From: Candidatus Bathyarchaeia archaeon
GTDB taxonomy: Archaea; Thermoproteota; Bathyarchaeia; Bathyarchaeales; Bathycorpusculaceae
NCBI GenBank assembly: GCA_050010515.1
Contig: JBEKKX010000002.1
Span: 1 to 64,000 of the forward strand
DNA: 64,000 nt
Direction of reading: 5' to 3'
Numbering within the stretch: the first letter of the stretch is position 1; each line of letters starts with the position of its first letter. Position numbers and translations under genes: made by a program. The notes beneath the pieces were generated by a model. That model was not told where the DNA came from. It was given only the letters and a program-made list of their open reading frames with translations, and did not search any database. This document shows positions 1-53,506 of this stretch, piece after piece.

Positions 1-63
1 CTTCAATGATTATTTTATTCTTAGGGGGGAATGGAAGGGGGGGGACTTCGAAATTTGACGTAG

Positions 64-172
64 TTAATCAACTGGTTAAAGTTTGGTTGTTCGACTATTT
101 CGAAGTTGTATGTTAAAGTACGTGGTTTTGGCTTCGGTTTTTGTCGGGCGTGATAATTAATCAGTTGTTTAA
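64..172. repeat. Pair of 16-bp palindromes TTAATCAACTGGTTAA (64-79) and TTAATCAGTTGTTTAA (157-172), downstream of G tracts at 24-44
   Basis: Read directly; same motif at 55484-55499, 57412-57427 and 57482-57497. Confidence 0.85.
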
Positions 173-236: not shown

Positions 237-281
237 GGGGAACCCTACATACTTTTCATAGTAATAATACAGGTGTTAAGT

Positions 282-467
282 ATGGAAAACATAGAAAATA
301 TAAAGGGAAGATGGTCACCGCAAGACACGGCAAAACTCAAAGAACTGTATCGGGCAAACGTCCCCGTTGATGAGATATGCCGAATCCTCAAGCGAGACAG
401 AACATCAATCCTCAATAAAGTAGAGCACACAGTTAACCTTCACCGAACCGTGAAAAGCGCAACTTAA
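282..467 (+). CDS. Small Myb/GcrA-like HTH DNA-binding protein
   Basis: WSPQDTAKLKELY...DEICRILKRDRTSILNK pattern; ATG 282 preferred over GTG 273. Confidence 0.65.
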   Translation: MENIENIKGRWSPQDTAKLKELYRANVPVDEICRILKRDRTSILNKVEHTVNLHRTVKSAT

Positions 468-2070: not shown

Positions 2071-2442
2071 ATGAAAAAAATGATAGAAAAAACAAGAGTA
2101 ATGCGCGTTCCAGAATCAGTCTATGAATTTTGGGGCTTTCTTGAGAAATACACAGGTAAATCTAAAGTTGAAAATCAAAAAGAACTTTGTGATGTTTTAA
2201 TGCAATTATGTGCAAGACACGACACTAACAAATTCAATTTAGTTTTTGAGTTGCAAGAATTTCCAACACCACAATTACTCATTAAAACAGAGGGAATTAG
2301 CACATTTACTATTGGGAAATTTGACCCAGAGGAAGAAAAGGAGAAGGAACAGGAACGGAAGCAACGATTTTCTGAGGTTGCTTTGAGCATCGCGGAATAT
2401 AACGGTAAGTCCATTCGAACAACAGAGGTAAAAAAGCCATGA
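2071..2442 (+). CDS. Putative ribbon-helix-helix regulator with C-terminal extension
   Basis: KTRVMRVPESVYEFW...TGKSKVE...ELCDVL beta-alpha-alpha pattern. Confidence 0.5.
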   Translation: MKKMIEKTRVMRVPESVYEFWGFLEKYTGKSKVENQKELCDVLMQLCARHDTNKFNLVFELQEFPTPQLLIKTEGISTFTIGKFDPEEEKEKEQERKQRFSEVALSIAEYNGKSIRTTEVKKP

Positions 2443-3047
2443 GAATTGAAGTAAAGACTTTAGATAACGCCTCATGGAATTGGACGGTTCCATTTCATGT
2501 AGAGGAATCATTAAACGGAAAACGGTTTAAGGGAGTTTTAGCCACAGAAGGCATAAGCAACAACAAAAACATTTACGAAACAGACCTTTTGAATTCGCTT
2601 GTCGGTCAAGTAGTGGGTTTAAAAATCTTTTTTGGCACATGCACAAAAGTCAACCCAAATACGGGTCAACTTACCGCAAACATGCATGATGAAAGCGGCG
2701 AACCCATAGGTCAAATATTGAGGGGCTGGATAGAAAAAGGAAAGCTCTGGATAGAGGGCATTTTAGAAGAAAGTTTTGCCAAACTACATAAAATTTCTAA
2801 GGGATGGGGTTTAAGCCTCAAGGGGAAAGGAGCAGTTTCATACGCGGTTGACGCGGCTGGAAGTGTTTTAAGCCGCATACGAAAGATGGTTTTGTCCTCA
2901 ATTCAATTGCTTAGTCCAAATACGCCTCGTGGCATGGACTCAGCCGAAGTTAAAGAGGTTCAAGAATCGCTTTGGGTTGAACAACCATTTTCAGATGAGG
3001 AATTAGCAAGCATCATAGTAACCTTGAATGAACAGGGGTTTTTATAA
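2439..3047 (+). CDS. Prohead/capsid maturation protease-like protein (HK97/T4 gp21 assemblin fold)
   Basis: FKGVLATEGISNNKNIY, His in MHD..EPIG, Ser in GLSLKG, QLLSPNTP motifs in the expected order. Confidence 0.7.
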   Translation: MRIEVKTLDNASWNWTVPFHVEESLNGKRFKGVLATEGISNNKNIYETDLLNSLVGQVVGLKIFFGTCTKVNPNTGQLTANMHDESGEPIGQILRGWIEKGKLWIEGILEESFAKLHKISKGWGLSLKGKGAVSYAVDAAGSVLSRIRKMVLSSIQLLSPNTPRGMDSAEVKEVQESLWVEQPFSDEELASIIVTLNEQGFL

Positions 3048-3048
3048 A

Positions 3049-3756
3049 ATGTCAGAAAAAACAATTGAAATAAACGTAAAGAAAGACTCGGAAAACGAGC
3101 AGTTAAAACAGCAACTCGCCGAGAAAACTGATGAGTCAGAGGATTTAAAAAATAAGCTCGGCATAATTGCGGAAAAAAAGCTGGAAGAGAAACGTAAAGG
3201 TGTTACTGAAAAAATAAACACTCTTATTGCTGACCCAGATAAACGCGCTGAAATGCTTGAGAACTTGAAGGGTCGAACCCCAGAAGGCATCAAAGATATG
3301 GAGTACACAATGAACCTTCTTGAAGAACAGCTATCGAAAGCTAAAAACCAAAAATTCGAAGTTCCCGCTGGGAGTGCACCTATGAACTCTCAACAATTGG
3401 GTTCCAGTATAGAAACTGATGATATTTACAGGAAAAAATTCGGGTCATATGACGACATGATACGCGCACTTAGAAATGAAAGTAAATCTGAGGACAAACA
3501 GAAAGCTCAACATGCAAATCTCGTTTTAAATGCGTTGTTAAACAAGTATGCCGTTGCTCAAAAACAAATACATGAGGAAAATCGTTACTGTGAAGACGAT
3601 GCTATTCCCAAAACCGACAAAGTTCCAACTGTGGACTTTAGCAAATCAGAAGAGCCTTTTAGCGAACTTGAACGTTTTGGAATCCGCAAATCACCATTAA
3701 ATTACGCTCGTAATCAACGGCAAATAATCGGTCAAAAAGCAAAGGATGTGGCATAA
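3049..3756 (+). CDS. Coiled-coil protein, possibly scaffold-like
   Basis: Heptad E/K-rich N-terminal half; directly follows protease (TAA-A-ATG). Confidence 0.55.
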   Translation: MSEKTIEINVKKDSENEQLKQQLAEKTDESEDLKNKLGIIAEKKLEEKRKGVTEKINTLIADPDKRAEMLENLKGRTPEGIKDMEYTMNLLEEQLSKAKNQKFEVPAGSAPMNSQQLGSSIETDDIYRKKFGSYDDMIRALRNESKSEDKQKAQHANLVLNALLNKYAVAQKQIHEENRYCEDDAIPKTDKVPTVDFSKSEEPFSELERFGIRKSPLNYARNQRQIIGQKAKDVA

Positions 3757-5504: not shown

Positions 5505-6107
5505 ATGCAACAACTCCAAACTTTAGAAATACTATGCCCTTTTTGTAATGATAGTACAGTTGTTCGGCATGGCTTATCCAACGATGGAAGCAAACAGCGA
5601 TTTATCTGTCGTTCATGCGGAAAGAACTTTTTTGTTTCCTTAACAACTTCACAAATTATCCAGCCTATTAAGCAACCAAATAGGCACCTGACAAGAAAAC
5701 CAACAGGGCAATCGGCAAGATTTAAAATGCTAATACCTATTCCCGATGACGTTAAATGCCCAAGATGTAATGGTGTAAGCCTTCAAAGGCATGGTAAATC
5801 CCCTAATGGAAAGCAAAGGTACTTTTGTAAAACTTGCCGAATAAAATTTGTTTTCGGCTTTAAATCTAATCAACAAAAAATGATGAGTAACAGAATAATT
5901 CACATGTCACATTTGGCAATTGATAATTGTATAGAAATACCTTGCTTTTTATGCCCAGATAACGACAAGATTTGTTCAACTCTTGAATGCGGCAAATTAT
6001 CAGCGTGGTTGAATAGTCCACCTATTCATGGGTATATCCCTAAAGTTGAGGAATATGAGTTAGGCGATACAGGAGAATTTGAAGATACATGGAGACGCAA
6101 TAGGTAA
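5505..6107 (+). CDS. Two IS1/InsA-type Zn ribbons fused to a TFEbeta/RPC34-like 4-Cys Fe-S motif
   Basis: Two CPxC..RHG....GxQRxxCxxC ribbons; C-terminal PCFLCPDNDKIC....CGKLSAW. Confidence 0.65.
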   Translation: MQQLQTLEILCPFCNDSTVVRHGLSNDGSKQRFICRSCGKNFFVSLTTSQIIQPIKQPNRHLTRKPTGQSARFKMLIPIPDDVKCPRCNGVSLQRHGKSPNGKQRYFCKTCRIKFVFGFKSNQQKMMSNRIIHMSHLAIDNCIEIPCFLCPDNDKICSTLECGKLSAWLNSPPIHGYIPKVEEYELGDTGEFEDTWRRNR

Positions 6108-6745
6108 TGTTTGACACAGAAACCCACGAAGCTAAACTACGAGAGCTTAACGAGCGTTATATAGCGGGCAAACTGTCACGGGAAGGCGTTCAAAATGAAA
6201 TTAGCTGTTTGCTCGGCGAAACGAATTTGGCTTTCCGACTTCAAAACCGTTTGCTTCAAGCGGTAAACGGGGAACTTTCCGCAAAGGGAAAAGAGCGTAT
6301 AAACTTGAAGCAATACCTTGCAAAATGTGGGGAAATAGAGGATTCAATTATTCAAAGCGAGTTTCCATTCGCATTTTTCCAAGAAGCAACCTTAGAAGAA
6401 ATCGAGGCGTTAGACCCTACCCTTTTCGACTCAAAAACCTTAATGCTTATCGTAATTTCGGCTCTTCGCATGTACATCGATAACGAACAAGAAAACGACC
6501 CTAAAGCTGAAGCTCTACATAAAATCTATCTTGAGCTAAAAATTTCGCTATGTGCTTTAATCCCAGAATTTCCGAAAGAGGATGGTTTTGTTGATTATCT
6601 GGATAACCGTGAATCTAAATTATTAGCCGAACAACTCAAACAAACAGGGGAAAAATGTCCGTATTGCTCAGGTACCCACATCCAGAAATATGGGCAAAAA
6701 AAGTTCAAATGTGTATCTTGCGGGCACTATTGGAGAACCAAGTAA
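6107..6745 (+). CDS. Helical protein with C-terminal Zn ribbon
   Basis: CPYCSGTHIQKYGQKKFKCVSCGHYWR. Confidence 0.65.
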   Translation: MFDTETHEAKLRELNERYIAGKLSREGVQNEISCLLGETNLAFRLQNRLLQAVNGELSAKGKERINLKQYLAKCGEIEDSIIQSEFPFAFFQEATLEEIEALDPTLFDSKTLMLIVISALRMYIDNEQENDPKAEALHKIYLELKISLCALIPEFPKEDGFVDYLDNRESKLLAEQLKQTGEKCPYCSGTHIQKYGQKKFKCVSCGHYWRTK

Positions 6746-6962
6746 CTTAGGGGATGTCATCATAGAATTGATGCATTCCCCTTTATGGTAATTGAAGAAA
6801 GTTGAGTAAGTAGCTCTATTCAAGCTGGTAGGGTGACGCTAACCAACTAATGGTCACGTTAGCTGACGAAGACGAAAGCAGATGGTCACTCTCTCTGTAA
6901 GTAGCCAATTAACTTTCTCCATTACAAATATTGACCTAAAAAAGAAGGAAAAAAATGAGGCT

Positions 6963-7073
6963 TTAACGGTTTGCTACGCTGTCGAGATAGCTGTTAGCCA
7001 TGTCAAGTTTAGAATTCGTTTTCCGCAACTCGGCTAAGATTTCTCTTAAGACCTCAAGTTCTTCAGTTGTCAT
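6963..7073 (-). CDS. 36-aa helical ORF coupled to integrase A
   Basis: ATGA overlap with integrase stop; MTTEELEVLREILAELRKTNSKLD...; followed by T tract. Confidence 0.5.
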   Translation of the reverse strand: MTTEELEVLREILAELRKTNSKLDMANSYLDSVANR

Positions 7074-8221
7074 GGCTCTTCACTCTCTTTATGTTCTTCT
7101 TTGGGTTCTTGTTTTTTGCCATTTTGGGTTTCCATTATTTTAGCGAATTCATAGACGCTTTTCAGTTGTTCTTGAATTTGCGGTGGCACCTTGCTTAACA
7201 TACCGTTCTGTTCCATGAATTCAATTAATGCCTTTTGCGCCTTAACATGTGATACGACCAAATCGGTTAAGATGTTATATTTCGCGTTTCCGTTAACCAT
7301 TTGGCTTAATGATAGGTGTGTTGGGTAGGCTTTTTGATATTTCTCATACGCACTTTTCTTTAAAGTTTGCAAATAAGTCGAATCAGTCACGGGTATTTCT
7401 TTACCAACTATTATCTTGACTTCCCAAGCGTTTAACCCCGCGTCACTTAAAGCATTCATAAGGTATTTGCGCAATAGGTGAAAGTGGACACGACCAATTA
7501 AGACAATATTTGCCTCAGTCGCCAAATTCTTAAGGATGTTGTTTAACTGTAGCTCGGTTAAGTCAAATAATTTCGTTTGATTTGGAGATTCTTTATTTAA
7601 CTTCATTATGTAGTTGTCTAAGCTGAAGATTGCCATAGGGTTAAGTATTCCGTAAACGGTAGCTCCCGTTTTTTTCCGTTGCCAATCAAAAGCGATAAAC
7701 TCAGAGTTTTGTGATTTGGTTCTTTTAACCAAGTTTTCTACAAAGTCTCTTTCCAAGTTGCCGAAAGACGAAACGTCCCACCCTAAACTTGTTGCCGTGC
7801 TAAGAATTGCCTTGTTGCGTGTGTCGGCTACCGCATACATGGCGCGAAGGTCAGCTATTGAGAAGATGTGTTCGCCTTTAGCCGCTTCCGCTTTAACAGT
7901 CTTTTTCTTTAAACCTCTAATCGGTTCTTTTTGGCTACTATAAAATGCTCTAACCGCATTAATGGGGAACCGCACGGAATTAGGCTTTAACGATTCGCCT
8001 TTAGGAGTCTTATAATCATTAACGAGGTAGTTTTGAAATGCTAAAAGTTGGCTCTTCGCCTTGATTTGGTCGAAGTTGTCTAACAGTTGCTTAGGAGTCG
8101 TTTTAGCCCATGAGCAGAAAAACTTGAAACTTGTTTCGTTTGCACTTTTCGTTTTAGGGTTTTGGTACTCGTTAAGCCATGCGCTCATAGGTAGCCACTC
8201 GTTTTGTTCTTGTTCATTCAT
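7070..8221 (-). CDS. Tyrosine recombinase/integrase (element A)
   Basis: RNKAIL...SLGWD, RKKT, HFHLLRKY (HxxR), IVGK...STY catalytic Tyr; N-terminal core-binding region. Confidence 0.85.
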   Translation of the reverse strand: MNEQEQNEWLPMSAWLNEYQNPKTKSANETSFKFFCSWAKTTPKQLLDNFDQIKAKSQLLAFQNYLVNDYKTPKGESLKPNSVRFPINAVRAFYSSQKEPIRGLKKKTVKAEAAKGEHIFSIADLRAMYAVADTRNKAILSTATSLGWDVSSFGNLERDFVENLVKRTKSQNSEFIAFDWQRKKTGATVYGILNPMAIFSLDNYIMKLNKESPNQTKLFDLTELQLNNILKNLATEANIVLIGRVHFHLLRKYLMNALSDAGLNAWEVKIIVGKEIPVTDSTYLQTLKKSAYEKYQKAYPTHLSLSQMVNGNAKYNILTDLVVSHVKAQKALIEFMEQNGMLSKVPPQIQEQLKSVYEFAKIMETQNGKKQEPKEEHKESEEP

Positions 8222-8278
8222 GTTTTATCAACTCCGTTTTTAAGATATGTTATGTCAAAAGGTGCTAATATAGGTTAG

Positions 8279-9634
8279 ATAGCAATAATAAAACTTTTCT
8301 TATCTATTGATACTTTTGGTCGAAAAACAATAGTTAACATCCCATCTGACTTGCACTTTCCAAGCGTAGACTCCGAAAATTTCAAAGTTTGGATAACGGA
8401 GTGGGCTTGCTTATCAGGTAAAACAAGAAAGGGGCTCAGGATAAAGAAGCTTCACATAGTCTGGTCAAAAGATCCTGTTCAGGACGATATACAGGGAATT
8501 GCTATAATTAGAGGGGGAATGGTTGTTGAGAGAATACCGATATCAGACCTTCTCATCGCTCCAGATCCTATTATTTCAAAGCACATATATGGATATGTTG
8601 AAGGGGACTTGGGTGTTCAACATAAACTGAAAGAATGCGAGGATCCTACACACTATCGATTCACAAAAAAGGCAGGTTGGGGTAACAAAAATATTTACCA
8701 AGCGATTAAAGATTACGTTGCAGCTCAAATGCAATATTTCTCTTCATCCAAACTCGGATCAACAATAGGTAAATCAGCCACTGGAGATTACGCTACACTA
8801 AAAGAATTTAATACCTTGCTGAAGTCCATAGGGATTGATGTTCTAACCCTTTCTCCACCGATACCCCCAAAGACGCAGCCGCAAAGAACGTTTCAAGTTT
8901 CCTTGAATAACGACCAAACAGATGGCCTCCAATTAGTTTTTCCAACCCCTGATTTTAGAAATCCGATTAAGCGTGTCGAGTTCAACGAGGAAATTACCAA
9001 TATACACGCAAAAATTCTGAATTCAACAAAGTCCCCAGCGCGAGTTCAATTAAGCATCTATACGGAACAAAACGAGACGAAAAGGGATACGCTAATTGAC
9101 AAAGAAATTACTGTATACCCAAATTACCCCACACACGTAAACCCGATGTCACTTAAGATAACAAAAACAGAATATGCTCAGGGAGAATGTCATCTAAGGG
9201 CTAAGATGGTTTGCTTGAATCATCCTGAACATAAGAAAGGTGAGGAATTGGAAATTATCTCGGTACGTTTCTGGATAGCTACTGACCCTCCTCTGGGTAA
9301 AGGTGCCTTCAGAGAAGTTCAGTATGTTCCAGAGGTAACAGAAGAGATAGATGGTGAGATAATAAAAATCGATGGTAAAGTGACGCCACACTCTTCAGGG
9401 GATGGAAATATCCTCTTGATCAATACCTCACATCCAATATACAAACAAAGGGTACCGTCAAGGTAGAACGAACAAGCAAGAAAAGACTACCTTATCGAAA
9501 TGATGGCTAAAAAAATTCCATTTGTGCTAATTTCCAACAACAGTGCGCCTTACAAGGATATTGAAGACCCTGAAGAGATTTTCAAGAGAATATCTGCTTT
9601 GTATTCAAAAATAATGGGCAAATACTTTGAATAA
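8279..9634 (+). pseudogene. N-terminally truncated protein with internal amber stop; resembles the C-terminal part of GHKL/HATPase-associated proteins
   Basis: Frame open from 8279 without a convincing start; TAG at 9464-9466 followed by 55 more in-frame codons to TAA 9632-9634; IAIIRGGM..IYGYV..EDPTH and INTSHPIY motifs. Confidence 0.55.
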
Positions 9635-9657
9635 TCGAGAAGCACCTGGAGTACAGT

Positions 9658-10317
9658 ATGGCAATAATTGTAGACAAAAACGGAAGACGAATTTACAAAA
9701 CCATTGGGTATTTAGCGTACGAAGATAAAGAGAACGCTGATAAGTTAGACAATTTCCTGAAAATTGAAATTAAACAAATAGAAAAAAGATTAGAACAAAA
9801 AGGATTACTTACACTTAAAGGAAAAAGTGGGTCAATCCAGTTTTGGTTTAATCTGGGTCTGGAACTTAGAGATTTATGGTGTAAGGTTAGGGCTACGTAC
9901 AATTTACCTGATACATTTTTACCATATTTCTTCAAAGCTGTTTTTGATAACTCGGATGCAGTGAAACCGCAATCGGGAAGGGCTGACAGACTCAAAAATG
10001 CCTACTTCTACTATGGCTATATTATAGCCGGCTTCCCTTGGGAGCAAGTTGCGTCGGCAGGGAGTTGGCGACAGTGGATTGAGTTCTTAGATGCGAGAAG
10101 GATTCGTACTGACCCACGAATTATTGAGTGGTTCGTACAAAGAAAGGTTATGGAATTGCAAAGGGGCACCAATCTTTCGAGAGAAGAATGGTTTAGACGA
10201 ATAACGCGTGAAATCAGATCAGAGTTTCATAACATTGACACTACAGTACTGTCCAAAGACGAGTTATATGACAGCTTAGATGAAATACTTTCCAGGGTTG
10301 TATCAAGATTACAATAA
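9658..10317 (+). CDS. Hypothetical protein, weakly DUF1016-N (YhcG N-terminal)-like
   Basis: FWFNLGLEL and GSWRQWIEFL segments; GGAG SD. Confidence 0.45.
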   Translation: MAIIVDKNGRRIYKTIGYLAYEDKENADKLDNFLKIEIKQIEKRLEQKGLLTLKGKSGSIQFWFNLGLELRDLWCKVRATYNLPDTFLPYFFKAVFDNSDAVKPQSGRADRLKNAYFYYGYIIAGFPWEQVASAGSWRQWIEFLDARRIRTDPRIIEWFVQRKVMELQRGTNLSREEWFRRITREIRSEFHNIDTTVLSKDELYDSLDEILSRVVSRLQ

Positions 10318-10435
10318 ACATACGATAGCCCTCTCCAGCCTTATCTGACTAAAAAATCATATTCGCCATTTTTTTCCGTTAAACAGTTTAGACATTGAAA
10401 TGCCCCCTGTTTGTTTTTATATCAAACTTATTAAC

Positions 10436-11710
10436 TTAAGTAGGGGTAGTGGTCATTGGCTGCATGCTTTTTCGAATCCAAGAAACAAATCCCATAATTG
10501 CCTGAGCGAATATCTGAGTTTCAAGCTCTTCTGTAGTGTTCATTCCAGCGAGAAGAAGATGCCCTCTTCCCCTCTTTAATAAACAAATTGGGTAAATTTC
10601 ACCAGAGACCTCATCTTTAGCTCTTATAATGGGGACTAAGTCAGTACTATTTGGTAGCGCTCTAAATTCATTGATTGTACAGTTCTCAGGTATTAATTTC
10701 CCAAATTTCTCAACATCTTCATCACTCTGAAAGACAGGCCTTTTATTTTTCGAGACTGGCGTAGGCATTACGTTAAACTCCCTATGAAGGAGGGTGCCTG
10801 TAAATTCAAGATATTCCTTGTAATTCTGAATTGTGACGTTAATTCCATCAAACTTAATCTCGTCGGGTACCAAGAGCCTTTTTTCACATATTGCTATTTT
10901 ATTGTTCTCTTTAAGGGTAACATCCCATGCGTAAAAAAAGGGAAATCCACCTGTATTTACGTAGACACCGCCATTTTCGATATAACTGCGGATATTATTG
11001 AAAGCCAAGTTTTGCTTAACGTTGATTTCCGGAAACATTTCGCCAAAAGGGTTAATGATAATACCATATCTCTCAGAAATATCTTCAGAATTTATATCCT
11101 CAATTTCAAGTTCTATGCCTAAAGTCCCACTTAGGCTCTCAAGTCTTTTGTGCCAAGTGGTCCGATCATTATTAGCAAACGGGAATTCAGCACACTTAAC
11201 CTCTCCTGCTTCCGAGAAATAACCAGTAAGAATGCCTATCCTTACTTTAGGTAACCACCTATTTCTTATCTCAACGGTGCCAAGTAAATTGCATAACGTT
11301 TTTGCATCGTTAATTACAGTACTCGAATATTCTTTTGAAAATATTTTATCAGGCATAACCTTTGGAAATTGATTATGCTGTATTCCATATCTTGCGATAA
11401 TCCTAAGGTCATCAGTATAGCCAAGCAGAATTGGTGTCATTTTGGTTATAGTGCTTGATTTGCCGAAACCTTTTTCTTCAATCTTCTTAGCCAATGCGCT
11501 AATAGTAGTAGCTTTTAGAAAATGCTCATGGTTAACGTCGGTTACATCCAGAAGCTCACAAAGAGCTTTCAAAGAAAATTCAATAGCTTCAAAGGCAGCA
11601 ATTACAGATTCAACATTATTACTATGAAACAATCTCTTCGCTTGGCTTAGGTTATGGTAAGCTCTTCGGGTATACCATGCGGCTAAATCGCGATCTGTCA
11701 TGCTAATCAC
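10436..11710 (-). CDS. HEPN domain fused to class I glutamine amidotransferase-like domain
   Basis: N-terminal RAYHNLSQAKRL..AFEAIEFSLKAL..HEH..ARYG; C-terminal IINPFGE..YIENGGVYVNTGGFPF. Confidence 0.65.
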   Translation of the reverse strand: MISMTDRDLAAWYTRRAYHNLSQAKRLFHSNNVESVIAAFEAIEFSLKALCELLDVTDVNHEHFLKATTISALAKKIEEKGFGKSSTITKMTPILLGYTDDLRIIARYGIQHNQFPKVMPDKIFSKEYSSTVINDAKTLCNLLGTVEIRNRWLPKVRIGILTGYFSEAGEVKCAEFPFANNDRTTWHKRLESLSGTLGIELEIEDINSEDISERYGIIINPFGEMFPEINVKQNLAFNNIRSYIENGGVYVNTGGFPFFYAWDVTLKENNKIAICEKRLLVPDEIKFDGINVTIQNYKEYLEFTGTLLHREFNVMPTPVSKNKRPVFQSDEDVEKFGKLIPENCTINEFRALPNSTDLVPIIRAKDEVSGEIYPICLLKRGRGHLLLAGMNTTEELETQIFAQAIMGFVSWIRKSMQPMTTTPT

Positions 11711-11922
11711 ATATTGAGATAATTACAAATAAGATTAGCGGTGGCTTTTCTCCTACATTTAAGTAGTTGCCCCCTGGTCTTAGATTCCGCGGACTGAATG
11801 CCAATCATGGCCTTATTTAGCCTTCATTTGCCTTAAATATTAAAATTTCACTCGAAAATTAAAAAGTCAACCGCCCATAAAGACAAGAACCTTGAAACCA
11901 AACAGTACGCGAAGCAAACAAA

Positions 11923-12510
11923 TTAGGGCTCTATGTCGCTTTTTATTTTTTTTCCCCTTGCAGACGGTACAATCCTCATTTTCGCTCCGCCAAAATCCTT
12001 AGCCAACTCTTCACCCGCGAAAAAACGGTCCAGAAAAACTGCAAGCGCAGCGCATTCTGAATGTGGCTGGTTCCCGATGGACACGTTAAAATCTGATACA
12101 TCGCTTGAATAGAATTCGCCTGGAACTTTCTGGCTTCCAACAAGGACTAAAACATCCTTGTTTAAATTTTTAATTCTGTTTAGGGCGTCGCTTGTCTGGA
12201 TGTTTTCCCCGTAAGCGGTTAAATGGACAACAACGCCGCCATTAGCCTTCCAGTCGTGAACGGCTTTTTTCCACGGGGTTCCCATTTCAAACTGGAAGGT
12301 TCCGCCCCAACGCGCGGTTATTTTCCTTACTGTTTGCTCTATATTGGAGTCTTCTACGTCTGAAAGTATAAAGCCTGAAGCACAAAGTGCCCGCGCAGTT
12401 AAAGCAACATGAGTAGTTAACCGCACATCCCGCTGTGGTCTGTGCCCCCACCTTAAAACCACAATCTTTGGCAGGTCATTTGGTTTTTTGGTTGGTTGTG
12501 AATTTGCCAT
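11923..12510 (-). CDS. trm56: tRNA (cytidine56-2'-O)-methyltransferase
   Basis: LRWGHRPQRDVRLTTHVALTARA, VHLTAYG, GNQPHSE. Confidence 0.92.
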   Translation of the reverse strand: MANSQPTKKPNDLPKIVVLRWGHRPQRDVRLTTHVALTARALCASGFILSDVEDSNIEQTVRKITARWGGTFQFEMGTPWKKAVHDWKANGGVVVHLTAYGENIQTSDALNRIKNLNKDVLVLVGSQKVPGEFYSSDVSDFNVSIGNQPHSECAALAVFLDRFFAGEELAKDFGGAKMRIVPSARGKKIKSDIEP

Positions 12511-13747
12511 TTAATTCTTCCACTTTTCTTCTCACTTGCTCAGTTAACTCTGGGGTAGCTTCAAATACTACGTGAACCGAATCATTGGTGAAATCTTCTT
12601 TTTTGACATCTGTTTTTTCATGAACCCATGAGATAAAGGGCATGGTCCTGTTAGTTAACGGAACCGAAAACTGCGCTTGGACGTAATTTTCAAGAATCCT
12701 CAGTATTTCCCCTCTCAGTAAATCAAGGTTTGTTTGGCACTTTGCTGACAAGAGAATTGGATTATTAGTTTTATCTTTGAGGGCTTCGAGTTTTTGGTTT
12801 GTTTCAGCTTCGTTGATTAAGTCAATTTTGTTTAGAGCGGTTATGGTTGGTATACCTGATGCTCCAAGACGGTCGATTGTTTCTAGGCAAATGTTGTTTT
12901 TCTTCTCAATTGTTTCTATTGGCTCGCTTAAGTCTAACATCAGTATTATTAGGTCTGAAAAGATGGTTTCTTCCAGAGTGGAATGAAATGCTTCAATCAA
13001 AGATAAGGGTAAACGGTCAATGAAGCCAACAGTGTCTGTTAAAAGAAACCTACGGTTGGAAAACTCTATCATCCGCGTAGTGGTTGAAAGAGTTGTGAAT
13101 AATGCTTTGTCAACTTGAACGGTTTCTTCGGTTAAAGCATTAAACAAGGAGCTTTTTCCAGACTTCGTGTATCCAGCAAGCGAAATAGTCAAGAAGCCAA
13201 GCTCCGTCCGCCTTTCCCTATGAAGAACTCTTTTTTCTCTAATTTTTGTAAGTTTTTTGAGGTTTGTTTGAACCTGCCTTTTTATGGCGTCACTGTAAAC
13301 GTCTGCTTCGTAAGCGCCAAGACCCATAAAACCGGGCTGCTCGCTCCCTTTTGCTAATCTAACTTTTTCCTTAGCGTGCTTGAGCTCGTTTTGCAGTGTT
13401 GCCAGTTGAATCTGGAGTTGGGCTTCTGTTGTTGTGGCTCGTCTATTGAAGATTTCAAGTATGAGCTGGAATCGATCGATGACTTCTACGTGTGTTGCTT
13501 TTGCTAGATTGTATGTTTGGCGAGTTTTTAGTTGGTTGTCAAAAATTACTTTTTCAGCGCCTGCTTCCTGCACCATCTTGGCAAGTTCTTCTACTTTTCC
13601 AGCGCCTATTTGATACCGTGAATCAGGCGGTCTGGTTTGTTCTAATGTGGCTACAACAGTGTATCCGGCTGATTCTGCTAATCTTTTAAGTTCATCTAAA
13701 CTTGACTCTTCACGGTTCAGCCTACGCTGAACTATGACGGCTTTCGT
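12476..13747 (-). CDS. hflX: GTPase HflX (conserved N-terminus extends 57 codons upstream of ATG 13576)
   Basis: IDRFQLILEIF, GYTKSGKSSL, DTVGFI, NKID; upstream ELKRLAESAGY..IGAGKVEEL in frame. Confidence 0.9.
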   Translation of the reverse strand, partial: TKAVIVQRRLNREESSLDELKRLAESAGYTVVATLEQTRPPDSRYQIGAGKVEELAKMVQEAGAEKVIFDNQLKTRQTYNLAKATHVEVIDRFQLILEIFNRRATTTEAQLQIQLATLQNELKHAKEKVRLAKGSEQPGFMGLGAYEADVYSDAIKRQVQTNLKKLTKIREKRVLHRERRTELGFLTISLAGYTKSGKSSLFNALTEETVQVDKALFTTLSTTTRMIEFSNRRFLLTDTVGFIDRLPLSLIEAFHSTLEETIFSDLIILMLDLSEPIETIEKKNNICLETIDRLGASGIPTITALNKIDLINEAETNQKLEALKDKTNNPILLSAKCQTNLDLLRGEILRILENYVQAQFSVPLTNRTMPFISWVHEKTDVKKEDFTNDSVHVVFEATPELTEQVRRKVEELNGKFTTNQKTK

Positions 13748-14259
13748 TCTGTGGTTGCCTCCCCGCCTTTCTTGTCTAACTTGATAAGGTCTCCCAATGT
13801 CAATTCTTGGTTGGCGGACTGAGGGATTTGAGTGACTTTTTCTTCTGATATGGGAACAAGCAACTTGATTTTTAACATGTGTTCAAGCTTTGCGGCAAGC
13901 TGGTTGTTTGGCGTCATTTTGCCAGCTTCAAGGTTTCTTAAAACTGAGGCTTTCTCGTTTATTTTTTTGCCCAGTTCCTCATGGGTGAGCGCTAATTTTT
14001 CCCGCGCCGCTCTTATTTTATTTGCATAGTCTTCGGCAGGTTCTTGAGTGATTTCCACTTTAGCAACAATTGGTTTTCTTTGAACCATTGTAACAGGAGC
14101 CTTTGGTTTTTTGAGGTTTTTTTGGGGAAGGGCTACTTCTTCTTCATGGATTATTTTACCATGCTTTGAGCATTCAACGCATACGGTTAGTTTGGCTCCT
14201 TCAATTACTGCCGTTATTGGTTCATCATGAATTTTGTGTCCGCAGACTTCACATCTCAA
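13732..14259 (-). CDS. mbf1: Archaeal multiprotein bridging factor 1
   Basis: CEVCG..IEGAKLTVCVEC Zn ribbon plus HTH_3, LTLGD. Confidence 0.9.
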   Translation of the reverse strand: MRCEVCGHKIHDEPITAVIEGAKLTVCVECSKHGKIIHEEEVALPQKNLKKPKAPVTMVQRKPIVAKVEITQEPAEDYANKIRAAREKLALTHEELGKKINEKASVLRNLEAGKMTPNNQLAAKLEHMLKIKLLVPISEEKVTQIPQSANQELTLGDLIKLDKKGGEATTERKPS

Positions 14260-15588: not shown

Positions 15589-15972
15589 TTGGTGGAAGTG
15601 AAGTCTACGCATAAACGTATGAATCCTCGAGAGCAAAAACGTTTGATGCAACGTATGGGCATGAACATGAATTCTGTACCTGACGTTCAACAAGTCATAA
15701 TTAAAACAAGCGGCAAAGACATAGTTATCGATGAACCCGAAGTGGCAATTTTAGAAATTCAAGGGCAAAAAATGTACCAGGTTATCGGCGGTCAAGTTTC
15801 AGAGCAAGCCCCATCTCAACGCCAAACCGCTAAGGCAGCTCAGCCAGCGTTTTCTGAAGAGGATGTGAGGCTGGTGGCTGACCAAACTGGTAAAAGTTTA
15901 GAGAAAGCAAAAGAAGCCCTTGAGGAATGCCAGGGAGATTTGGCGAAAGCTATACTGCTGCTTCAATCTTAA
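15589..15972 (+). CDS. nac: Nascent polypeptide-associated complex protein
   Basis: MNPREQKRLMQRMG, EEDVRLVADQTG, GDLAKAIL UBA-like tail. Confidence 0.92.
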   Translation: MVEVKSTHKRMNPREQKRLMQRMGMNMNSVPDVQQVIIKTSGKDIVIDEPEVAILEIQGQKMYQVIGGQVSEQAPSQRQTAKAAQPAFSEEDVRLVADQTGKSLEKAKEALEECQGDLAKAILLLQS

Positions 15973-16030: not shown

Positions 16031-16954
16031 CTGATTCAAAACGTAGATGTAGCGGTTATTGGTCACTTCTCAATCGACACAATTCTATTGCCCAGCAGAA
16101 CTGCCCCATTTGTTGTTTTAGGCGGCGCTGTAACCTACACGTCATTTGCTGCTAAACGTTTGGAAGCAACTGTTTCTGTAATCTCCAAAGTAGGCGGGAA
16201 TTTTCCAGAAGCTTACCTGTGGTGGCTAAGGCAAGAAGGCATCGACGTTTCAGGCGTAATTAAGCGTGCAGATGAGCCGACCACAGGCTTTGAGCTGGGT
16301 TACAATGCAGATTTGTCTGATAGAACCCTGAAATTGAAAAGTAAAGGAGCGCCAATAAACTTGGCTGACTTACCAGTTGATTTGCATGCTAAGGCAGTTC
16401 ATGTTGCGCCCATTGCCAACGAAGTATCATTCGAAGTAGTTGAGCATCTGAAGCATTGCGCTGATATACTGTCGCTTGACCCTCAGGGTTTACTTCGAAG
16501 CTTCGACGAAGCAGGAAACGTAACAGAAAACGCTTCGGTTGACAAACGAATATTTAGTTTAGTCAACATTTACAAGTCATCTTTAAATGAAATTTATGCG
16601 TTAACTGACCAGTCTGAGCTTAAACCTGCAATAAAAGCCATTCACGATTTCGGAGTTGAAACCGTCATCGTTACCATGGGCACTAAAGGCTCAGTGCTCT
16701 CAGTCGAGGGAGCACAATACAATATTGCAGCATGCCCTTCACAAGTTGTAGTTGACCCAACAGGCGCAGGAGACGTTTTCGTAGGCGGCTTCTTAACCGA
16801 GTACCTACGCCAAAAAGAATCAGTATGGTGTGCTTGCGTCGGTTCAGCTGCAGCTTCGCTGGTCGTCGAAGGAATTGGCCCAACTTATTTCGGCAAAAAA
16901 GAAGAAATTTATCAGAGAGCCAAGACTTTGTATGAAAAGGAACTTAAGCAATAG
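16031..16954 (+). CDS. PfkB family carbohydrate kinase (probable CTG start)
   Basis: DVAVIGHFSIDTI N-terminus, LDPQG, DPTGAGDVF. Confidence 0.88.
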   Translation: MIQNVDVAVIGHFSIDTILLPSRTAPFVVLGGAVTYTSFAAKRLEATVSVISKVGGNFPEAYLWWLRQEGIDVSGVIKRADEPTTGFELGYNADLSDRTLKLKSKGAPINLADLPVDLHAKAVHVAPIANEVSFEVVEHLKHCADILSLDPQGLLRSFDEAGNVTENASVDKRIFSLVNIYKSSLNEIYALTDQSELKPAIKAIHDFGVETVIVTMGTKGSVLSVEGAQYNIAACPSQVVVDPTGAGDVFVGGFLTEYLRQKESVWCACVGSAAASLVVEGIGPTYFGKKEEIYQRAKTLYEKELKQ

Positions 16955-21675: not shown

Positions 21676-23508
21676 ATGTTCGGCTGGACTGGTACTTTCC
21701 TAAATATAGATTTAACCAAACGTAAGGCTACTCCAGAAAGATATGATGAAGCTTTAGCGTTGAATTTTCTGGGCGGTAGAGGCTTCGCCGTCAAAATCCT
21801 CTGGGACACCCTTAAACAGGGAACCGACCCGCTATCACCTGAAAACAAACTAGTTTTTGCCACTGGACCACTAACAGCCATTGGTTTACCAAACAGCGGC
21901 AAACTTGTTGTTGCGTCAAAAAGCCCCTTAACCGGCGGTTACGGCGACGGAAACATGGGAACATTAGCGTCTGTGAATATGCGGAGGGCTGGTTACGATG
22001 CGCTAATCATCGAGGGCAAAGCGCAAACGCCAGTCATCCTCCATATTAAAGATAAAGACTGCGAGTTTGTGGATGCTAAGGATTTTTGGGGCTTGAATTC
22101 TTTTGAAACTCATGAGCAGCTGGTAAAGAAATATTCGCGCACGGCAGGCATCGTTTCTATTGGTCCAGCTGGAGAGAACCAAGTCAAGTTTGCAAATGTT
22201 GTTTCGCAAGAGGGACGCGCGGGCGGGCGACCGGGAATGGGCGCTGTCATGGGCTCCAAAAATCTAAAAGCCATAGTAATTGAAGGCACAGCGCAAATAC
22301 CGCTTGCAGACCCAGACGAAATGAAGAAGTTAGCTGCCGATGGTTACCGAGAAGTCCTAGCTAAACCGCTCTACGCCTTTTGGAAGCGGCAGGGAACCAT
22401 GTCAACAGTAGAATGGTCACAAGAGAACAGTGCTCTGCCCACCTTCAATTACAGGCAAGGAGTTTTCGATAAAGCTGAAGAAATTGGCGGATTTTCCATG
22501 GAAAAAATCAAGGTTTCAAACCGCGGCTGCCCACAGTGCAATATGACCTGCGGCAATGTTGTTAAAAACAGCGAAGGAAAAGATTCAGAGTTAGATTACG
22601 AAAACGTTGCTATGCTTGGCTCCAACATTGGTTTAGGCAATCTGGCGCAAGTGGCCACCTTGAACCGCATGGCAGACGAGCTTGGGTTTGACGCTATCGC
22701 TCTTGGGAACGTGCTTGGCTTTGCCATGGAAGCCTCCGAGAAAGGGCTGATAGCAGAGAAGATCAGGTGGGGGCAGTTTGAAGAGATTAAAGTGTTGATT
22801 AACAATATCGCTTACAGGCGTGGTTTGGGCGCAGTCTTAGCTGAAGGAGTCCGAGCCGCTTCTGCAACGGTTGGTAATGGGTCGAGCGAGTGGGCAATGC
22901 ATGTCAAGGGCTTGGAGGTTTCCGCTTATGATTGCCACGCTGCGCCCGGTATGGCTTTAGCCTATGGTACCAGCTCCATCGGTGCTCACCATAAAGATGC
23001 TTGGCTAATAACATGGGAAGTAAAAGCGGGCAGAGAAAAATACGATTCAGGAAAGGTTGATTATCTCATTGAAACCCAGCTTATCCGCGGCGGGCTCTTT
23101 GAAGCATTAACTGTCTGCCGTTTTCCCTACAACCAACTTGGCTTTGAGCTTGAATGGTACCAAAAATACTTGCGTGCAGCCACAGGAGTAGAATTTTCTT
23201 TAGAGCAGTTAAACCAAATCAGCGATAGAATACTCAATTTAGTTCGGGCATTTTGGGTGCGAGAGTACAGGGAAAAATGGACGCGCAGCTTGGATTTTCC
23301 GCCCATGAGGTGGTTTAAAGAACCCTTAGCAGAAGGCGCATTAAAAGGCTCTATGCTTGATTATGAAAAATACAACGGTATGCTGAGCACTTACTATGAG
23401 AAAAGAGGCTGGGATGAGCAAGGAATACCTAAGAAGTCTACTTTGGCACGGCTAGGTTTACATGATGCAGCTGAACAGCTCAAGGCATACGTTAAATTGG
23501 AGGAGTAG
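21676..23508 (+). CDS. Tungsten aldehyde:ferredoxin oxidoreductase (AOR/FOR family)
   Basis: FLGGRG, KSPLTG, GRPGMGAVMGSKNLKA, DELGFD, YYEKRGWD; start set at ATG 21676. Confidence 0.92.
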   Translation: MFGWTGTFLNIDLTKRKATPERYDEALALNFLGGRGFAVKILWDTLKQGTDPLSPENKLVFATGPLTAIGLPNSGKLVVASKSPLTGGYGDGNMGTLASVNMRRAGYDALIIEGKAQTPVILHIKDKDCEFVDAKDFWGLNSFETHEQLVKKYSRTAGIVSIGPAGENQVKFANVVSQEGRAGGRPGMGAVMGSKNLKAIVIEGTAQIPLADPDEMKKLAADGYREVLAKPLYAFWKRQGTMSTVEWSQENSALPTFNYRQGVFDKAEEIGGFSMEKIKVSNRGCPQCNMTCGNVVKNSEGKDSELDYENVAMLGSNIGLGNLAQVATLNRMADELGFDAIALGNVLGFAMEASEKGLIAEKIRWGQFEEIKVLINNIAYRRGLGAVLAEGVRAASATVGNGSSEWAMHVKGLEVSAYDCHAAPGMALAYGTSSIGAHHKDAWLITWEVKAGREKYDSGKVDYLIETQLIRGGLFEALTVCRFPYNQLGFELEWYQKYLRAATGVEFSLEQLNQISDRILNLVRAFWVREYREKWTRSLDFPPMRWFKEPLAEGALKGSMLDYEKYNGMLSTYYEKRGWDEQGIPKKSTLARLGLHDAAEQLKAYVKLEE

Positions 23509-29805: not shown

Positions 29806-30204
29806 TTACGCTTTTTTCTTTGGCACCCGAAAATGTGAATCTTTTCCGGCGCTGATATATTCTCCGCCCATGCCTCTCACTGCGGAAGCAATTTTTGCAA
29901 AGTTTTCTGAACCCAAAAACTGCTTCGGTTTAATTATCATGTAATCGCCCTTCTCCTCAAAGCTTAATCGGGCCTCAAGCTCCTCAGGAAATGACATGCG
30001 AATTTCATCAAGCGACCTCTGTTTTGCACCAGCCTCAGGCGGTGTAGGCGCTTGAGTAGCTGTCGGCTGGGTAATTTGACCCCCCGCGAGAGACTTGATT
30101 GATGATGAAACGGAACGCATTTCTTCTGAAATGTCGCTTAAAGTTTTAAGAATTTTATCAACCTTTCCGACTAGCTCATTGAGCTTTTCTTTGTCAGTAC
30201 TCAT
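29806..30204 (-). CDS. Hypothetical protein: coiled coil plus C-terminal alpha/beta domain
   Basis: IIKPKQFLGSENFAKIASAVRGMGGEYISAGKDSHFRVP; domain also in 56588..57307. Confidence 0.75.
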   Translation of the reverse strand: MSTDKEKLNELVGKVDKILKTLSDISEEMRSVSSSIKSLAGGQITQPTATQAPTPPEAGAKQRSLDEIRMSFPEELEARLSFEEKGDYMIIKPKQFLGSENFAKIASAVRGMGGEYISAGKDSHFRVPKKKA

Positions 30205-37077: not shown

Positions 37078-38334
37078 TTAAATCCGCGATTTTTTGGGTG
37101 ACGATGATATTTTTGTTTTAACGATTTTATGAGCTCGCCATGTGTGAACAAAGGCAAAAGGTCCGATACCAATTTTACTCAACATTTTGGCGTATTGCCC
37201 TTCAATCCAGCTTTGCATTTCTTTCTTTCTTAGCGTAACATATACTTGCGACGAAGCGGCCAGACCAGCTATCCAAGGAGAAAGGAAGCCTGAAAGTCCG
37301 GCATACGTAATTGCAGCCGCTGATACACTTATGCCGCTATACATAACATTTGAGACTTTATCAAGAAAAGGGGCCGATTTTTTAAAATTCTCTGCTTCTT
37401 GAAATAGCGCATCTCTTGTCTCTAGTGCCTCTTTAACTTTCAGGTCCTTCACAAGTCTTGAGAATTCTTGGTAGGCCCTTTGTAAATCTTTTGCGCAGTC
37501 TTGTGTTTCTACCACAAGATCAATGTTAAGATCCGATGAGTCCGACGGAGTCACAAATCCTAAATCAGTTATTAGATATTCCGCAATTTCACTGGTAAAT
37601 TCTTCCTTTGAGTGGTTATTGCCTTTCAATGGAATATTAACCATTTTTCCAATAGTTTCATCTGTGGGTGCTATTCCTCCTAGGTATGGTGGGATTAGGA
37701 CTTGGTGTTTAAGGTATGCTAACCAATCTGTTTCATACATTCGAATTGATTCATTATCCTTCATTGATCGTATGTAATGAAAGCCCATATTGATCCTTCT
37801 TTTATACCCTAAAGCACAAAAAACACTGTACAAAAAGGCGTTTTTTGATATAATTTTTTCATTGGACCGCTTTGCTTCATTTTCGAACCTTTTTAACTCA
37901 TTAAATCCCACAAGTTCATTAATAATTTCGTAAGTTCTATCCCAAGGAGCTATTCTAATTAACGGATCCAGATGCTCAAACTCTTTTCCGGCATAGTCAC
38001 TGTATGGCCAGAGTAATAAAGGGTATAACCGCCCTTTTTTCGACAATTCTACAACATCTTTTACATCCATACCAGCATAATTTTTAAACTCAGGTACCGT
38101 CATCGGCGAGATTCCCAAAATTGGGTATGAATAAAATGGAATAACTCTCCACCCATCAAGAAGATAGGGACTGATGTAAGCTCTTTCCATTCCATTCCAA
38201 GGAAATTCTGGGTATAGATACTTTGCCAGTTGTGTACCTTTATTTTTTTTAAACTCTGCTACTGCTCGTTCAGCTGCCTTTAGGCCTTTTTCCATTTGTT
38301 GGCTTTCTAACTCATTAAGCTCAGCGAGCCTCAT
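37078..38334 (-). CDS. Accessory hypothetical protein with C-terminal hydrophobic hairpin
   Basis: 418-aa AT-rich ORF; no recognised family. Confidence 0.7.
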   Translation of the reverse strand: MRLAELNELESQQMEKGLKAAERAVAEFKKNKGTQLAKYLYPEFPWNGMERAYISPYLLDGWRVIPFYSYPILGISPMTVPEFKNYAGMDVKDVVELSKKGRLYPLLLWPYSDYAGKEFEHLDPLIRIAPWDRTYEIINELVGFNELKRFENEAKRSNEKIISKNAFLYSVFCALGYKRRINMGFHYIRSMKDNESIRMYETDWLAYLKHQVLIPPYLGGIAPTDETIGKMVNIPLKGNNHSKEEFTSEIAEYLITDLGFVTPSDSSDLNIDLVVETQDCAKDLQRAYQEFSRLVKDLKVKEALETRDALFQEAENFKKSAPFLDKVSNVMYSGISVSAAAITYAGLSGFLSPWIAGLAASSQVYVTLRKKEMQSWIEGQYAKMLSKIGIGPFAFVHTWRAHKIVKTKISSSPKKSRI

Positions 38335-38529
38335 TATAATCTAATAACTATTTGCTAACAAGGGTTATAATAGTTTTTAAAGAAAATTAGAAATTTTTAC
38401 AACTTTTGTTTAATCAAACTCTCGTAATATAACATCTTTGGGAGTTAACACCAAAGGTTGCTGAAAGGACAGATTCATTGCACAAAACGATTAAAAAAAC
38501 AAATTACCGCCTCTCCTTGTTCAAAAAAC

Positions 38530-39156
38530 TTAGGCTTGAGTTGCCGTCAAAGTAATATCAAAGCTGTAGCTGAATTGTCCATTACTTGCATAATTTGTGT
38601 TTGTAGGTGCCATGTTCGTCATAAGCATAATTGCTTCTGTTTGTCCAACAGCTATTGAGCTTGTTGTCGGAGAACCAGTCATACTAGTTAACATTTCGTA
38701 TTGAAAATTAAAATCGATGTTAGAAGGAACATTTACGTTTGATGCAGTAGCAGTTATTGTTATCGGCGCGTTACCAGTGTTTGTCACTATTAATGTATCC
38801 AAACTAGTTGGTGCCCAACCGCTGCCAAAACCTGGAGTCGTAGGAGATTGCCACATTGTATAAGTTGGAAAATCAGCAAAACTTGAAGGAGTTAAAGTCG
38901 AAGGGACAGCAGTTCCATTCTGAAAAGACAACGAAAATGATGTAGAAACAGGGGTTGCCGTTGGCGTTGGAGTTGCTGTTGGGCCTGGTGTTGCTGGTAG
39001 ATTAGGATAACTCGCTGTTCCTCTAACACTTATGGTTTGTGAGTTTGTTACAGTGGCTATCACTAAGGGAATTGCAATCAACAGAATTGATATCACAACT
39101 AAAATCAAAAGTTTCTTTCTCACCGATTTCACCTCCAAAAAAGCCGCTGCCTCCAT
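38530..39156 (-). CDS. Secreted/surface S/T/P-rich beta protein
   Basis: RKK plus hydrophobic signal, TP repeats, C-terminal FDITLTA strand. Confidence 0.75.
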   Translation of the reverse strand: MEAAAFLEVKSVRKKLLILVVISILLIAIPLVIATVTNSQTISVRGTASYPNLPATPGPTATPTPTATPVSTSFSLSFQNGTAVPSTLTPSSFADFPTYTMWQSPTTPGFGSGWAPTSLDTLIVTNTGNAPITITATASNVNVPSNIDFNFQYEMLTSMTGSPTTSSIAVGQTEAIMLMTNMAPTNTNYASNGQFSYSFDITLTATQA

Positions 39157-39327
39157 CCTTTCTTATTTAAAGTATGTTCTTTCTAGAAATTTATAAAACA
39201 ATGTGGTCACAATCTGAAGCAACATTTGCTCCTAAAAGACGCAACACCAAAGCTTAAGGACTCTTTAATTTTAAGCATAGCAGATATAAGGAACCCTTAC
39301 AATTTAAAACCGCAAGAGATGTAGATT

Positions 39328-43645: not shown

Positions 43646-43683
43646 AATCTTGGATGCCAAACATAGAAGCGGGATAAAAGAGA

Positions 43684-44046: not shown

Positions 44047-44050
44047 GCGA

Positions 44051-45430: not shown

Positions 45431-45492
45431 GAGACAGCAAAAACGCTGATAAGGAAGCGTTTAATTCACTATTTTAAAGGAAGCTTATTTTT

Positions 45493-46580: not shown

Positions 46581-46645
46581 CGGTGCTTCCTCGCCTTTGA
46601 GGTTAAGCTCGCATGCTTTTATGATTTGTGTAAAAAAAATTCAGG

Positions 46646-53451: not shown

Positions 53452-53506
53452 ACATCAATTGACCCAGAATTCATAAAGCCTTTAACTTTTGAGGGGGGAA
53501 TAAAGG

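Follow-up and report, generated by a model that had tools for sequence, protein, structure and literature searches.

A 16-bp palindrome, TTAATCA-NN-TGATTAA, is confined to mobile DNA in the genome of a Candidatus Bathyarchaeia archaeon and recurs, in a similar promoter-proximal setting, throughout the genome of an archaeal head-tailed virus. A dimeric regulator serving a network of Bathyarchaeia viruses and mobile elements probably uses it (we put the probability at about 0.6) as an operator or an upstream activating site. The restriction to mobile DNA, the positions, spacing and conservation of the copies, and their sharing with the virus were observed directly; binding of a protein to the palindrome and an effect on transcription are predicted from these sequence data. 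The window analyzed is a 64,000-nucleotide stretch, positions 1 to 64000 of contig C2 in a host assembly of 2,379,893 bp and 66 contigs.

Scanned with the pattern TTAAHCARYTGDTTAA (TTAAHCA-RY-TGDTTAA, 16 bp), the 64-kb window gave five matches, at 64, 157, 55484, 57412 and 57482, and 100 dinucleotide-preserving shuffles of it gave none. The first-pass annotation of this DNA had listed these five copies and had noticed none among the core genes, in line with the scan. With up to two mismatches to the pattern there were seven matches in the window against 1.33 expected, the two extra ones lying at 22787, in the core region, and at 54793, in the second of the elements described below. Genome-wide, the pattern matched eight times (the five copies in the window, C3 1089 and 1118, and C5 46480), all eight within three integrase-bearing elements, and the reversed-pattern control gave no match; in this genome the motif keeps to such elements and does not occur at background frequency. 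Allowing one mismatch to TTAATCAACTGATTAA yielded 11 sites genome-wide, of which 10 fell in the three elements and one at C8 29465, against approximately 0.25 such sites expected outside mobile DNA by our own composition estimate. The C8 near-match, which abuts the ATG of a host gene of the MazE/AbrB type, was set aside as probable chance. The centers of the sites in this genome are all nonpalindromic (AC/GT, once GA), and arm variants are one-sided and found only at the symmetry-related positions 5 and 12, with compensatory changes never seen.

Four of the copies in the window form two pairs, and in each case the first gene of the block lies downstream of the pair. In element 1, the distal site TTAATCAACTGGTTAA (64 to 79) and the proximal site TTAATCAGTTGTTTAA (157 to 172) lie 93 bp apart beside twin G tracts (GGGGGGAATGGAAGGGGGGGG, 24 to 44, plus strand); the proximal site is 56 nt upstream of a TATA-like TTTAAATA (229 to 236) and 110 nt before the ATG at 282. 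In element 2, the proximal site TTAATCAACTGATTAA (57412 to 57427) and the distal site TTAACCAACTGATTAA (57482 to 57497) lie 70 bp apart beside twin C tracts (CCCCCCACTACCCACCCCCC, 57579 to 57598, minus strand). The proximal site is here 14 nt from CATTTAAA (57390 to 57397) and 45 nt from CATATAAA (57359 to 57366), both TATA-like and on the minus strand, and the ATG follows at 57307. A direct reading of the sequence agrees with the pair spacings, the neighboring G/C tracts and the position ahead of the first gene as originally described, and also with the report that 154 to 172 is the exact reverse complement of 55484 to 55502 over 19 bp. The latter interval contains the fifth copy, TTAAACAACTGATTAA (55484 to 55499), which lies between convergent gene ends. 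A degenerate copy with two mismatches to the pattern (TTAAACAGTAGCTTAA, 54793 to 54808) is located 51 nt past the stop of the element-2 integrase and aligns with the intact C5 46480 copy, which occupies the same post-integrase place. Twin G/C tracts occur 11 times genome-wide, three of them in the three elements.

The window starts at a contig end, which truncates element 1. The opening 36 bases of C2, reverse-complemented, are those with which C3 opens, a unique end overlap at a poly-G tract, and a 202-kb metagenome contig (L158; 98 to 100% protein identity) crosses the C2/C3 join uninterrupted, so the left edge of the window is an assembly break and not a genome end. The C3 part of element 1 contributes sites at 498, 1089, 1118 and 3115 and a two-mismatch site at 4222, so that the element has six or seven sites within some 4.4 kb. 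DNA of the host that relatives conserve begins near C3 7220 to 7700; on the other side, window positions 6500 to 11917 have no match in 30 other genomes of the same genus at an E value of ≤1e-20. The variable island holding element 1 measures about 19 kb in all, and the borders of element 1 within it are approximate. Past the element-1 integrase, positions 8351 to 11917, without a match in the 30 other same-genus genomes, include a 424-amino-acid (aa) HEPN-domain protein (10436 to 11710) and may be a separate variable or defense island. At the island edge, a stretch of about 105 nt (C3 7475 to 7586) has three to four further copies (83 to 95% identical) in each of two related genomes, G004 and G047, and weaker copies in G000; it matched no Rfam family or tRNA.

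The first gene after the element-1 pair (273 to 467, plus strand) encodes a protein of 64 aa that resembles helix-turn-helix proteins weakly, matching the "transcriptional regulator" family phrog_323 at E 1.3e-6 and, below cut-off, HTH_38 at E 0.03. Further on, a morphogenesis-like operon is headed by a 123-aa protein (2071 to 2442, plus strand), grouped by homology clustering, whose homologues directly adjoin a palindrome pair in four metagenome loci (L153, L154, L168 and L173). Upstream of the copy in element 1 (1991 to 2019) there is a TATA-like ATTTAAATA followed by another, 15-bp palindrome, GTTACAACTTGTAAC (2005 to 2019), which falls at the expected transcription start; the homologous operon elsewhere has a TTAATCA palindrome pair instead. 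The next product (2439 to 3047, plus strand) is probably a distant relative of Caudovirus prohead serine proteases, matching virus ORF 11535-12191 (tblastn E 3e-18). The ORF itself had no Pfam match even at an E value of 5, and a PDB profile search with the protease alignment gave nothing below E 0.2; its profile collected 119 relatives, of which 55 were scanned, five of these matching Peptidase_S78 (PF04586) and two being fusions with phage capsid domains. A four-sequence alignment of the family shows invariant H83 and S126, which are predicted to be catalytic. It is followed by a charge-rich, scaffold-like protein (3028 to 3756, plus strand; virus ORF 10001-10789, E 2e-15), for which gene position and composition suggest a scaffold function. 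Given the 119-relative profile with its Peptidase_S78 matches, element 1 thus has a protease relative together with a scaffold-like gene. Searches of elements 1 and 2 against Pfam, PHROGs, NCBIfam and the virus found no capsid, portal or terminase gene. The remaining plus-strand genes of note encode a protein with two InsA-type zinc ribbons (5505 to 6107; PF03811, E 1.6e-16) and, by family clustering, a 212-aa protein with a C-terminal four-cysteine ribbon (6107 to 6745), the relatives of which are found in G019, in the virus (71332 to 71691) and as short ORFs in element-2-type elements (C5, G004, L156). A divergent tyrosine-recombinase-like integrase (7070 to 8221, minus strand) has its best assignments below cut-off (PF00589, E 0.0023; NCBIfam XerA, E 2e-5).

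Element 2 is a 5.1-kb insertion at 53431 to 58543, with 38% G+C compared to 43.6% in the core region. Its extent follows from empty sites, junction repeats and assembly contigs. It is flanked, where kae1 starts, by a 17-bp direct repeat with imperfect copies, the left copy being GATAAAAATATGTTTCC (53414 to 53430, plus strand; defined by empty sites in relatives, the sequence itself and an empty-site contig) and the right copy GATACAAATATGTATCC (58544 to 58560, plus strand), which overlaps the kae1 start. In 16 of 30 other same-genus genomes the site is empty, the alignments of the two flanks overlapping by 16 to 20 bases on one contig, and in 10 more of the 30 no more than about 60 bases separate the flanks. 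Occupied and empty forms are both present in public assemblies from peat and wetland: in run X19 one contig skips from 53418 to 58549 (empty site), and in run X11 a loose end at 53430 continues with the letters that follow 58560, with a depth of 2 to 12 for element-2 contigs versus flanks summing to about 300. Among the contigs aligned, none was reported to span a circular junction. A search for exact flanking repeats of ≥10 nt returned nothing convincing for the elements, and the imperfect repeat of element 2 was detected only through the empty sites. Neither a tRNA scan nor Rfam at the gathering threshold found anything in the window, L001 (C3) or L002 (C5), so no RNA gene marks the integration sites. 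Another insert, of about 1.8 kb, occupies the same kae1-start site in runs X19 and X13 and in genome G047, making this a recurrent integration target.

The element-2 integrase (53507 to 54742, plus strand; 411 aa) is weakly assigned (XerA, E 8e-7, below cut-off) and shares 48% identity with the integrase of the C5 element and 72% with that of G004; a PDB sequence search with both window integrases returned chance-level rows only. A small zinc-finger ORF (55219 to 55470, plus strand; a stop-to-stop frame whose start codon is approximate) has a 72% identical homologue in G063 with palindromes on both sides. The first gene after the element-2 pair (56588 to 57307, minus strand) encodes a 239-aa protein whose C-terminal domain of about 55 aa is also present in virus ORF 13427-14026 (phmmer E 5.8e-6) and in a host protein (29806 to 30204). 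The terminal gene (58150 to 58491, plus strand; 113 aa) has homologues in the C5, G004 and L156 elements, likewise located at that end. The third element of the genome, at C5 about 43200 to 47780, is of the element-2 type, with homologues of 56588-57307 and 58150-58491; its palindrome at 46480 is intact and just past the integrase stop, the place taken in element 2 by the degenerate 54793 copy. Near the non-integrase end of such elements, a stretch of about 230 nt (C5 43469 to 43692, L013 7093 to 7310, and L156) is 95 to 98% identical (translated) between genomes and contains a mini-ORF ending in QCRDCGKRFRKH, as in the G019 relatives of 6107-6745.

The palindrome is abundant in the virus G041 (IMGVR_UViG_3300035660_000003), a 112,412-bp genome with direct terminal repeats that is rated complete and has 35 matches versus none for the reversed control. 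It surfaced in an exact-match scan of IMG/VR in which, among the matches listed, most were chance singletons, and pair patterns were then used in place of the single-motif scan. G041 is an archaeal head-tailed virus: it encodes a large terminase subunit and a capsid protein, as well as MCM, Rad51/RadA, LonB, a Topo VI-A/Spo11-like protein, L10e and an ATP-dependent ligase. It also carries two DruA-like proteins (Druantia defense family), a papain-like protease and an extensive block of glycosylation genes. Element 1 has the prohead-protease relative and the scaffold-like gene in common with it, and element 2 one gene; in the virus, the protease (11535 to 12191) is followed by 10001-10789 and then by a capsid-like gene (8542 to 9441). 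Another ORF, 22181-22633 (HK97 gp10-like, weak), is shared with an element-1-type ORF of G019.

The viral sites are spread over 84 kb, ahead of many different genes, with 27 of the 35 outside every ORF of a crude gene set and the other eight in ORFs of 52 to 108 aa. An outward-facing TATA-like motif lies within 60 nt of 16 of the 35, compared with 3.4 ± 1.7 (maximum 10) for random positions. At many sites TTTATAAG or TTTAAATA follows 8 to 45 nt on, with an ATG after another 30 to 45 nt, and many carry a one-sided GAAAAGA flank. This order of palindrome, TATA box and ATG precedes the MCM gene and the operon with the shared morphogenesis genes. At an orthologous promoter of six G041-like viruses, the two palindromes and the TATA box are conserved, and in the most diverged of them, L180, the spacer between the palindromes differs.

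The window (157, 229 and ATG 282; 57412, TATA and ATG 57307) and 15 further pair loci, from other Bathyarchaeia, show the same layout, with a site-to-TATA distance varying from 8 to 56 nt. Among neighbor spacings of ≤120 bp, 21 of 47 are 42 to 43 bp and most others lie near multiples of 10.5 bp, counts that are not independent, since many involve orthologous copies and the search behind them allowed only gaps of 10 to 40 nt. The counts leave out L171 and L184 (GC 54 to 58%, GC center), judged unrelated, and L175, L158 and L157, which respectively overlaps L174, is the G000 copy and equals G004. About half of the sites in the host genome lie between converging genes (C3 1089/1118, 3115 and 4222, and window 55484).

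Close pairs, defined as two sites 10 to 40 nt apart, were found in IMG/VR in G041 only (three loci). In 185,579 species genomes they occurred at six loci, all from Bathyarchaeia, Bathyarchaeota or "uncultured archaeon," and the 27 metagenome stretches with such pairs include at least 14 G041-like virus fragments and two that look unrelated. Extending the search to other Bathyarchaeia genomes and viruses, as the first-pass annotation had suggested, placed the motif in a virus and, among the species genomes, its close pairs only in those titled as Bathyarchaeia or archaea. As they are found essentially nowhere else among the species genomes, close pairs can serve as a sequence tag for Bathyarchaeia mobile DNA in metagenomes. 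The pattern is rare in relatives: in a scan of 40 related genomes, seven of 24 from the same genus had one or two matches and 17 had none. Matches with an AC/GT center were examined in G004, which has an element-2-type element with three sites at the same locus as element 2; in G019, which has element-1-type contigs with the palindrome; and in G013 and G012, which have single sites in other contexts. The G012 site, inside an Lrp/AsnC gene, was set aside as probable chance.

The palindrome follows cargo modules and not integrases. At further same-genus loci with homologues of the element-2 integrase, G063 has three sites and seven of eight have none at ≤1 arm mismatch. The two window integrases are unrelated on comparison and most of the cargo is dissimilar, as had been noted from the start. 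Together, the site-free loci and the unrelated integrases indicate that the motif marks a regulatory network spanning several types of element and a viral lineage, not one integrase family, and the idea of a single new element family finds no support in its original form. What survives of the initial proposal is a shared, predicted protein-binding site linking the elements, now in the form of a common dyad confined to mobile DNA and paired near TATA boxes. Of the functions offered for it, a replication or packaging role fits the dispersed, promoter-proximal copies less well, and a helper-encoded factor may read it; 35 copies are present in a 112-kb virus that shares genes with both elements.

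We suggest that a dimeric, sequence-specific DNA-binding protein would occupy the palindrome in head-tailed viruses and integrated elements alike. Paired sites, about four helical turns apart, would place it immediately ahead of the BRE/TATA region that serves a transcription unit's first gene, and at sites between converging genes the bound protein could block read-through. Sequence comparison detected no protein family common to all motif carriers, and 93 small G041 ORFs searched against Pfam contained no classical DNA-binding domain, only a few zinc ribbons. One candidate binder is the InsA-type zinc-ribbon family, present in the virus and in both element types (element 1, 5505 to 6107; G041 16324 to 16500; L163; L156; G063). 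Its viral member sits beside a four-site cluster (15593 to 15866), and in L163 its gene is the first after a pair. The helix-turn-helix-like 64-aa protein (273 to 467) is a second candidate, and a third is a nuclease-like family with a D...E-x-K motif, read by eye in the alignment, that directly adjoins a pair in G004, L153, L154, L156 and L161. The four-cysteine ribbon family (6107 to 6745) offers a further lead. Eighteen sequencing runs contain half or more of the sampled words of the stretch, whose organism is common at peat sites, and no RNA run is listed among those carrying it.

The palindromes might instead be replication-origin or partition (centromere-like) sites, recognized by an initiator or segregation protein, with the proximity to promoters being secondary. 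Both window pairs do lie in 0.8 to 1 kb of noncoding DNA with twin G/C tracts and CA repeats, the sole twin C tract of G041 is 24 nt from a palindrome, and one viral stretch of about 2 kb (37100 to 39200), where ORFs of ≥60 aa are nearly absent and six palindromes lie along with G tracts, looks less like a promoter array and may be an origin or a noncoding RNA locus. Yet origin repeats are usually clustered, whereas the 35 viral sites extend over 84 kb ahead of many genes and recur at fixed places relative to TATA boxes, and searches of elements 1 and 2 turned up neither a gene for a replication initiator nor ParA/ParB. We therefore regard an origin or partition function as unlikely.

A regulator or chromatin protein of general use to the host, whose target the mobile elements had borrowed, would explain why elements with unrelated gene sets have the motif in common and why no shared element-encoded binder was found; the near-match at the host AbrB/MazE-type gene (C8 29465) could be read in the same way. 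Such a protein should nevertheless have host targets, and the 2.38-Mb genome has that one near-match outside mobile DNA, while 17 of the 24 other genomes of the genus are devoid of any match, which leaves this explanation with a low probability.

We think equally little of the palindrome as a site for a nuclease or recombinase (PD-(D/E)XK-like proteins) or as an accessory site of the integrase. It draws on the D...E-x-K family adjoining a pair in five loci and on the site just past the integrase stop in the C5 element, degenerate in element 2. Both window elements, however, are without the nuclease-like family, seven of eight further integrase loci have no site, and the att of element 2 (junctions 53430 and 58544) differs from the palindrome in sequence and place. 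The core site of a tyrosine recombinase consists of inverted binding sites around a 6- to 8-bp overlap at the element junction, to which 7-base arms with a 2-bp spacer do not correspond. Lastly, a role as a hairpin in RNA or DNA, such as a terminator, is most improbable even with several sites between converging genes and perfect copies folding to −4.2 and −5.1 kcal/mol, since the structures are weak (150 to 179 folds at −1.3 kcal/mol, z 0.02, and 55477 to 55506 at −1.7, about shuffle level), most virus sites are upstream of promoters, and the one-sided, noncompensatory changes at positions 5 and 12 fit protein contacts and not a hairpin.

If the palindrome is indeed a regulatory site, its sharing between virus and elements suggests cross-talk, of either a helper/satellite or an immunity type. 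Tentatively, and with considerable doubt, elements 1 and 2 and their relatives in C5, G004, G019 and G063 might stand to the G041-like head-tailed viruses of Bathyarchaeia as satellites or as immunity islands. As satellites, they would be switched on at infection by a virus-encoded regulator acting through the shared operator, and element 1 could rebuild helper capsids with a prohead protease and a scaffold of its own. As immunity islands, they would encode a regulator that silences an incoming virus at its 35 sites. Features in keeping with satellites are the integrase and att repeats that element 2 possesses, and the morphogenesis genes of element 1, found there without capsid, portal or terminase.

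Two bacterial systems invite comparison. Stoperators, the sites of the L5 repressor gp71 in Cluster A mycobacteriophages, are asymmetric 13-mers with an orientation bias; there are dozens per viral genome, intergenic, at promoters or between genes and shared by related genomes, so that cross-immunity is possible. The sites described here likewise are many copies of one short, intergenic sequence across a viral genome and its relatives. They differ from stoperators in being 16-bp palindromes with 7-bp arms, in their archaeal TATA promoters, in their presence on small integrated elements with other integrases, and in that the binder is a prediction. In P2 and P4, helper and satellite share a dyad site, at a fixed distance from a bacterial promoter, upstream of late promoters that are activated by the zinc-finger proteins Ogr and Delta. 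The zinc-ribbon family common to G041, element 1 and element-2-type elements is reminiscent of these activators, but the site-to-TATA distance varies here, and both activation and a helper relation are putative.

Bathyarchaeia are abundant in sediment and peat and are without cultures, and we know of no information on gene control in their viruses. The palindrome provides a specific handle on the promoters of a 112-kb virus, related virus fragments and small integrated islands, and it predicts a regulator that should be retrievable with a DNA probe. According to a 2025 preprint (bioRxiv 10.1101/2025.02.15.638363), pSSVx and pSSVi, satellites of Sulfolobus spindle-shaped viruses, were until then the sole archaeal satellites on record. 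Like elements 1 and 2, they are small archaeal elements with few virus-related genes. They are known satellites, dependent for their spread on helpers that are spindle-shaped viruses of Saccharolobus, whereas encapsidation of elements 1 and 2 is putative, and their genes and cis motif are shared with a head-tailed virus of Bathyarchaeia. Fuxiviridae, Kunpengviridae and other head-tailed Bathyarchaeia viruses have been described with MCM and replication genes and, in some, integrases (PMC10848311). The main text of that article contains neither "promoter" nor "inverted repeat," its single "palindrom" being in a reference title, and the sample number of G041 and two related contig prefixes are absent from two of its supplementary files. 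The parts of the literature searched yielded no published description of the palindromic 16-mers. Within the same bounds, the satellite reading, if true, would mean that a head-tailed virus of archaea has a satellite system for the first time, and a regulatory link between virus and chromosomal island would be the first in an uncultured archaeal class.

Some further observations concern the host genome and the two elements. The sole CRISPR-like array found in the assembly (C14 44687 to 44900) has three to four repeats, and pieces of its spacers match the array itself only, not G041, the elements or any retrieved locus. The host protein that shares a domain with the first gene after the element-2 pair (29806 to 30204) has 132 aa, is conserved across Bathyarchaeia and has 2,879 database matches, none with a name. 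Its AF2 model (mean pLDDT 72.8) had no Foldseek match in the PDB at an E value of ≤0.001, the best rows being domain II of ribosome recycling factor at about 0.08, and the ESM Atlas returned only Bathyarchaeota clusters without names. Finally, ATAACAAAAAATGATAAA is common to the noncoding regions of elements 1 (1960 to 1977, reverse-complemented) and 2 (57794 to 57811), and appeared as loose ends where metagenome contigs were aligned to the window.
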